Shown piece by piece: positions 59,018 to 59,289 of a stretch of DNA of 64,000 nucleotides. The notes under the pieces are model-generated. The model did not search any database and was not told the origin of the DNA. It was given only the letters and a program-made list of their open reading frames with translations. Each line of letters begins with the position of its first letter. Position 1 is the stretch's first letter. The stretch is from the NCBI RefSeq assembly GCF_056712565.1, contig NZ_CM160072.1; one strand, written 5' to 3'. The position numbers and the translations under genes were made by a program.

Positions 59018-59289
59018 ATTGTTCCTCACATGCACACATTGGTAATGAAAAAAAGACAAAACAGGAGGTAAGGCGCAATAGCCAGTTATTAGAATTAAGG
59101 ATGAATCAGGTGAAGTGCTGATTAGAAGAATAGATAAGAAAGCGTAACTGCGGGGGCAGAATGTGGATTAAACAGACAGATATGTGTTACTAAATGTAAC
59201 TAAAATGGCTTTCTGGTATTTGAAATTTATTTTTTAATATTGTCAGAATTTATCTGATTAACTGCCGGGCCGTAGACCCGACAATTATT

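Follow-up and report, generated by a model that had tools for sequence, protein, structure and literature searches.

The interval between narU and yddG is a known variable locus of Escherichia coli. The closest described system there is the O-island 62 region (z2239-z2242), which sits between yddG and narU and which Okeke et al. (2011, PMC3079680) report from Shigella and, in full, from O157/O55, 042, UMN026, IAI39 and SMS-3-5 and from phylogroups D, E and F. That study treats yddL and yddJ of K-12 as remnants and takes GC content as an argument for recent acquisition of the island. In Salmonella, an ompD/yddG/smvA neighbourhood is known from Santiviago 2002 according to the passages that cite it in PMC4215857 and PMC6362122, and smvAR is described as absent from E. 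coli (PMC6362122).

We examined this locus in a 64-kb stretch of contig NZ_CM160072.1, referred to here in its entirety as the window, in which narU adjoins yddG. The O-island 62 region of O157:H7 EDL933 and the EAEC 042 island (PMC3079680) share their site and boundaries with the window's empty allele, but O-island 62 as defined is the 1,548 bp that K-12 lacks, whereas the window is without the whole ~4.15 kb, including the parts that K-12 keeps as yddJ, yddK and yddL. These three K-12 genes are what K-12 retains of that segment at this site; the K-12 form has two internal deletions, whereas the window form corresponds to a single complete deletion. When set beside the Salmonella and Citrobacter locus (yddG-ompD-smvA-smvR-narU), the order and orientation of yddG and narU are the same and segment-bearing E. 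coli likewise have an OmpD-type porin downstream of yddG, but they carry LRR genes instead of smvA and smvR, and in the window the porin, the LRR genes and smvA/smvR are all missing. The adjacency is an ordinary strain difference at a locus already described in the literature; the empty B2-type allele and the orthology with ompD are not described in PMC3079680.

The narU-yddG junction in the window

The features of the interval and its flanks are as follows.

57629-59017, minus strand: narU, nitrate/nitrite transporter, 462 aa, intact (open reading frame list; full-length match to NCBIfam NF011608)
59018-59203, unstranded: narU upstream region, 186 bp, left of the presumed deletion, retained (alignments)
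59185-59204, unstranded: tandem 10-mer, TGTTACTAAA / TGTAACTAAA, containing an inverted GTTAC...GTAAC (repeat search)
59204-59209, unstranded: presumed deletion junction, six bases AATGGC that match neither segment end (base-level comparison)
59210-59289, unstranded: yddG-downstream 80 bp, right of the presumed deletion, retained (alignments)
59259-59287, minus strand: GC-rich hairpin with a 13-bp stem, directly after the yddG stop (ViennaRNA fold)
59290-60171, minus strand: yddG, aromatic amino acid exporter of the DMT family, 293 aa, intact (open reading frame; NCBIfam NF008676)
60403-63450, plus strand: fdnG (formate dehydrogenase-N alpha), divergent from yddG, a flanking landmark (open reading frames 60403-60990 and 61039-63450 in one frame; K-12 annotation)

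On the minus strand of the window narZ is followed by narU, whose product gives a full-length match of 1019.6 bits to the NCBIfam NarU model and whose ATG, confirmed in a check of start and stop codons, occupies 59017-59015. The YddG model scores 472 bits against the yddG product, and the TAA stop of that gene occupies 59292-59290. The original prediction that the two genes are adjacent is borne out, and its coordinates were exact, but the spacer between them measures 272 bp (59018-59289, 36% GC) and not the predicted length of about 230 bp. On the far side of yddG, an in-frame TGA at 60988-60990 splits fdnG into two entries in the open reading frame list; this is presumably the selenocysteine codon expected of formate dehydrogenase-N.

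The spacer contains no open reading frame related to the LRR or porin genes found at this site in other strains, and tblastn recovered no copy of the porin, EspR1 or second LRR gene (LRR2) anywhere in the 64-kb window. The part upstream of narU (59018-59203) aligns with the corresponding region of K-12, O157, two other Escherichia species and Citrobacter, and blastn matches between the O157 intergenic region and the loci L007, L008 and L011 are limited to this ~215-bp narU-upstream stretch. The hairpin behind yddG has a predicted energy of -22.8 kcal/mol and no T-run after its stem; a scan of 58900-59400 found no canonical intrinsic terminator and one promoter-like site, against 0.9 expected. 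An Rfam scan of 58500-60600 at E<=1 returned a single match, a chance miRNA at 20.9 bits, and no sRNA in the spacer.

By blastn, homology between the window and K-12 ends at 59203 and restarts at 59210, and in place of the six intervening bases K-12 has 1,960 bp (L001 8248-10207) and O157 about 4,147 bp. Against K-12, O157, MLI109 and ApSLC23 alike, homology stops at 59200-59203 and resumes at 59210-59213, the pattern of an empty-site allele, and the breakpoints are the same in all four comparisons: the left one follows ...TGTAACTAA and the right one precedes TTxCTGGTATTTG. Every empty-site genome examined reads ...TGTAACTAA-AATGGC-TTTCTGGTATTTG... across this point. Local alignment against the O157 segment and the Citrobacter, Salmonella and Enterobacter loci yielded nothing above shuffled sequences as a source of the six junction bases or of the yddG-proximal spacers of L007 and L008, except for a shared GTTACATTTAGTAAC block. 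A possible 3-bp TAA microhomology at the junction and an 11/16 match between the junction and the right inner end of the segment were both too weak to rely on.

The tandem 10-mer abuts the left breakpoint, where the variable segment starts on the narU side, and lies ~170-185 bp upstream of narU. Two other Escherichia species have it as well, as the conserved block GTTACATTTAGTAACACATA in the alignment, and it may represent a candidate regulatory site.

Over its last 25 kb the window matches APEC O1, S88, IHE3034, SF-468 and ATCC 11775 with 100% identity; these are ST95 / phylogroup B2 ExPEC-type strains. The RefSeq annotation of identical genomes places a type VI secretion Vgr/TssI gene and ansP within positions 39001-53000 of the window.

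Forms and decay of the segment across E. coli

We queried 5,426 complete E. coli genomes with a 1,001-bp sequence spanning the junction. The empty site was contiguous in 1,124 of them (21%), among them ATCC 11775, 536 and Nissle, and in nearly all of the remaining genomes the query was split at the same point. Because the same contiguous arrangement recurs in 1,124 complete genomes, an assembly artefact is excluded; chance was set aside as an explanation, gene adjacency being a non-statistical claim. A second census of the same genomes, with the O157 segment as megablast query, found segment DNA, whole or decayed, in 4,282 (about 79%) and no match in 1,144. The full ~4.15-kb form (at least 80% coverage) is present in about 1,009 genomes, and the K-12-type remnant (48% coverage in three pieces), the commonest state, in ~3,270 from many hosts and pathotypes. 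The segment occupies essentially one place per genome.

In O157:H7, MLI109 and ApSLC23, about 4.15 kb lie at exactly the window's boundaries, and relative to this full form K-12 lacks two internal stretches, one of about 641 bp and one of about 1,536 bp. The forms are laid out as follows.

Full segment, from narU to yddG: a 419-aa LRR gene (espR1), LRR fragments and a 366-aa 'porin OmpC'-family gene
K-12 internal deletion 1, O157 L003 10687-11327: 12-bp overlap at the joint (L001 9429-9440)
K-12 internal deletion 2, O157 L003 11654-13189: 9-bp overlap at the joint (L001 9746-9754)

The RefSeq order in MG1655 is narU, yddJ (a pseudogene), yddK (an LRR protein), yddL and yddG. Because of the two internal deletions, yddL, yddK and yddJ are gene fragments: yddL encodes the N-terminal 92 aa of the porin, and yddK/yddJ correspond, at 86-89% identity, to portions of EspR1 joined to the beginning of the second LRR gene. 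K-12 yddK is a chimera from the ~641-bp deletion between the two LRR genes, which refines the published view of yddK as 'inserted'. The second deletion (~1.5 kb, with its 9-bp overlap) fits in size the 1,548 bp published for O-island 62. Further states include strain 98210, with an internal stop in the porin and a deletion in the LRR part, and NT1N34, in which an IS1-associated deletion also truncates yddG. GC content is 36% for the segment overall, 33% for the LRR part and 44% for the porin, against about 50% in the flanks. The LRR gene is a putative LEE type III secretion effector (EspR1) by its RefSeq product name; the LRR match to SlrP is weak, at 32 bits and far below cut-off.

Sequence divergence around the site is uneven. 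On the narZ-narU side (50000-59203) the window is unusually divergent, with 94.4-95.8% identity to K-12 and O157 and a patchy distribution of 3-26 differences per 300 bp, and on the yddG-fdnG side identity to the same strains is 98.2%. ApSLC23 combines a window-type narU haplotype with the full segment: over the 3-kb left flank it differs from the window at 1-3 positions per 300 bp in most intervals and at up to 9 in a few. We also compared Nissle (L089, EcN_Sk, NZ_CP172017.1 2579165-2586166) with window positions 56200-62100 and with K-12. Most 300-bp intervals of its flanks do not differ from K-12 at all, the right 2.9 kb being fully identical, and bases of the window type are confined to about 40 bp left and a few bp right of the junction. 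The junction itself is identical to that of the window, which shows that it arose once, and the Nissle flanks look as if recombination had imported them up to the insertion/deletion heterology and stopped there.

Porin ancestry and synteny across genera

We scanned for YddG in one genome per species, which gave 80 loci. By tblastn, the arrangement fdnG <- yddG -> porin ... narU is present in many Citrobacter, in Salmonella arizonae/diarizonae, and in Enterobacter and Lelliottia; in Citrobacter and Salmonella the interval from porin to narU holds a 146-aa open reading frame, smvA (NF011571, 885 bits) and a TetR-family regulator (smvR). The distance from yddG to the porin is 450-630 bp in Citrobacter, Salmonella, Enterobacter and Lelliottia and 259 bp in E. 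coli O157, and in E. coli as elsewhere the porin is immediately downstream of yddG in the same orientation, the position of an OmpD-type locus. The E. coli segment porin has 70-75% amino acid identity to these yddG-linked porins, with which it shares the signal peptide MKLKxVAVxVT, compared with 59-62% to E. coli OmpC, OmpN, OmpF and PhoE. In a neighbour-joining tree, built without bootstrap and from a set that does not include S. Typhimurium OmpD, the segment porin groups with the syntenic porins on a long branch. Nucleotide homology to the outgroup loci reaches about 90 bp upstream of the porin start; at the nucleotide level the porin is about 71% identical to the outgroup porins and the flanks about 82-83%. 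In both position and phylogeny, the segment porin corresponds to the OmpD-type porin that adjoins yddG in Salmonella, Citrobacter and Enterobacter.

Within the genus, narU also adjoins yddG in the representatives of two other Escherichia species (L007 and L008, about 91% nucleotide identity). Homology with the window covers their narU-proximal ~215 bp, but their yddG-proximal ~90 bp are unrelated to its 80 bp (alignment score 16 versus a shuffle mean of 17-18), so their empty sites represent a different allele. The window's 80 bp (59210-59289) are about 98% shared with segment-bearing E. coli, in which they are contiguous with the porin end of the segment.

The narU-narZYWV region beside yddG is itself missing or reduced in some relatives. 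Escherichia sp. MOD1-EC7003 (L005, 10877-17200) has no NarU match within 10 kb downstream of yddG, and Salmonella arizonae (L026, 15400-16100) has only a narU fragment, followed by an IS3-like open reading frame and yncE/yncD-like genes. As narU itself has been lost in these two genomes, the whole neighbourhood is seen to be deletion-prone. In a MAG labelled Citrobacter sp. HRGM_Genome_0066 (L006), the yddG-fdnG region has 98.5% nucleotide identity to the window, and the contig looks like E. coli rather than Citrobacter.

Deletion, insertion or excision

The anatomy of the locus, its breakpoints, the two censuses, the synteny and the porin phylogeny lead us to regard the narU-yddG adjacency as the empty-site allele of the known variable locus, which most likely arose by a single deletion of about 4.1 kb in a B2-type lineage. 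Since the porin keeps the same position and orientation across genera and clusters with its syntenic counterparts, the porin part is most simply ancestral, and we infer that the window state is a loss rather than a gain. The ancestral order would have been the one shared with Salmonella and Citrobacter (yddG - ompD - small ORF - smvA - smvR - narU), the porin having been inherited from the common ancestor with these genera. LRR genes would have come to stand in place of smvA/smvR in E. coli, where the LRR part (33% GC) was probably acquired. The segment would then have decayed in several independent ways, including the K-12-type double deletion, the porin internal stop, the IS1-associated deletion and the complete loss proposed here. 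What was removed in the window's lineage would be an OmpD-type general porin gene beside yddG and one or two LRR genes of the espR1/yddK family beside narU, probably in a single illegitimate-recombination event without mobile-element signature, and the 80-bp yddG-proximal spacer would be the remnant left behind. Because the 186-bp narU upstream region and the yddG hairpin are intact, the flanking genes narU and yddG are probably unaffected.

The presence of yddJ, yddK and yddL between narU and yddG in K-12, and their absence here, were correctly predicted at the outset, and the MG1655 RefSeq annotation and the alignment agree on both. Their description as a K-12-specific accessory segment did not survive comparison with K-12 and other E. 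coli, which upheld the absence of the segment here and contradicted both its restriction to K-12 and its gain there. [quoted passage not shown] We give this explanation virtually no credence, as the junction and segment censuses refute it. Integrase- or transposase-mediated, site-specific excision of a mobile island would explain the sharp boundaries that all strains have in common, and the low GC content of the segment would suit it as well. It is nonetheless highly improbable given that the annotations of O157, MLI109, ApSLC23 and K-12 show no IS, integrase, transposase or tRNA gene within the segment or next to it, that neither flanking direct repeats nor a target-site or att-like duplication turned up in a repeat search of the junction, which has only the six unmatched bases, and that the porin is chromosomal and syntenic across genera; lacking integrase, transposase, tRNA/att and flanking direct repeats, the segment does not class as a mobile genomic island (integrative element).

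The other possible polarity is that the empty site is ancestral in Escherichia and that the porin and LRR genes were inserted or re-acquired through the yddG and narU flanks in a non-B2 ancestor. The AT-richness of the segment (36% GC overall, 33% in the LRR genes) is a usual sign of acquired DNA and is the ground on which PMC3079680 argues for recent acquisition. The adjacency of narU and yddG in L007 and L008 leaves room for an empty ancestral Escherichia site followed by re-acquisition, and the long branch of the segment porin, which is less similar to the outgroup porins than the flanks are to theirs, also appears to count against loss. Set against these points, four other genera have the porin at this position and in this orientation, and the segment porin clusters with theirs; the 80-bp spacer is common to the window and segment-bearing E. 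coli but unrelated in the other Escherichia species; the full segment occurs in strains with a window-type narU haplotype; and the full form is reported from phylogroups D, E and F (PMC3079680). We consider an ancestral empty site unlikely on this balance, and independent deletions in L007/L008 and in the window fit the sequences better than one ancestral empty site common to them.

If the preferred reading of a lineage deletion is correct, it may be asked whether selection in the B2/ExPEC lineage favoured losing the OmpD-type porin and the EspR1-like LRR genes completely, as a pathoadaptive deletion. We think this distinctly doubtful. Were it true, the benefit could lie, for example, in the loss of a surface antigen or of a phage or colicin receptor, and the deletion would have persisted even where recombination later replaced its flanks, as in Nissle, which is K-12-identical to within ~40 bp of the junction.

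For the strain analysed here, the expected effect is the absence of one OmpD-type porin and of EspR1-like LRR proteins. The importance of the observation beyond annotation is small, and it reveals no new mechanism; its use is as a lineage marker and as a caution when yddL, yddK and yddJ are treated as 'genes'. It also corrects a K-12-centred view of the locus, in that yddJ, yddK and yddL are decay products of a porin and LRR segment which, in one state or another, the majority of E. coli still have, and B2-type strains like the one analysed here would have lost the segment entirely, including the E. coli counterpart of Salmonella ompD.
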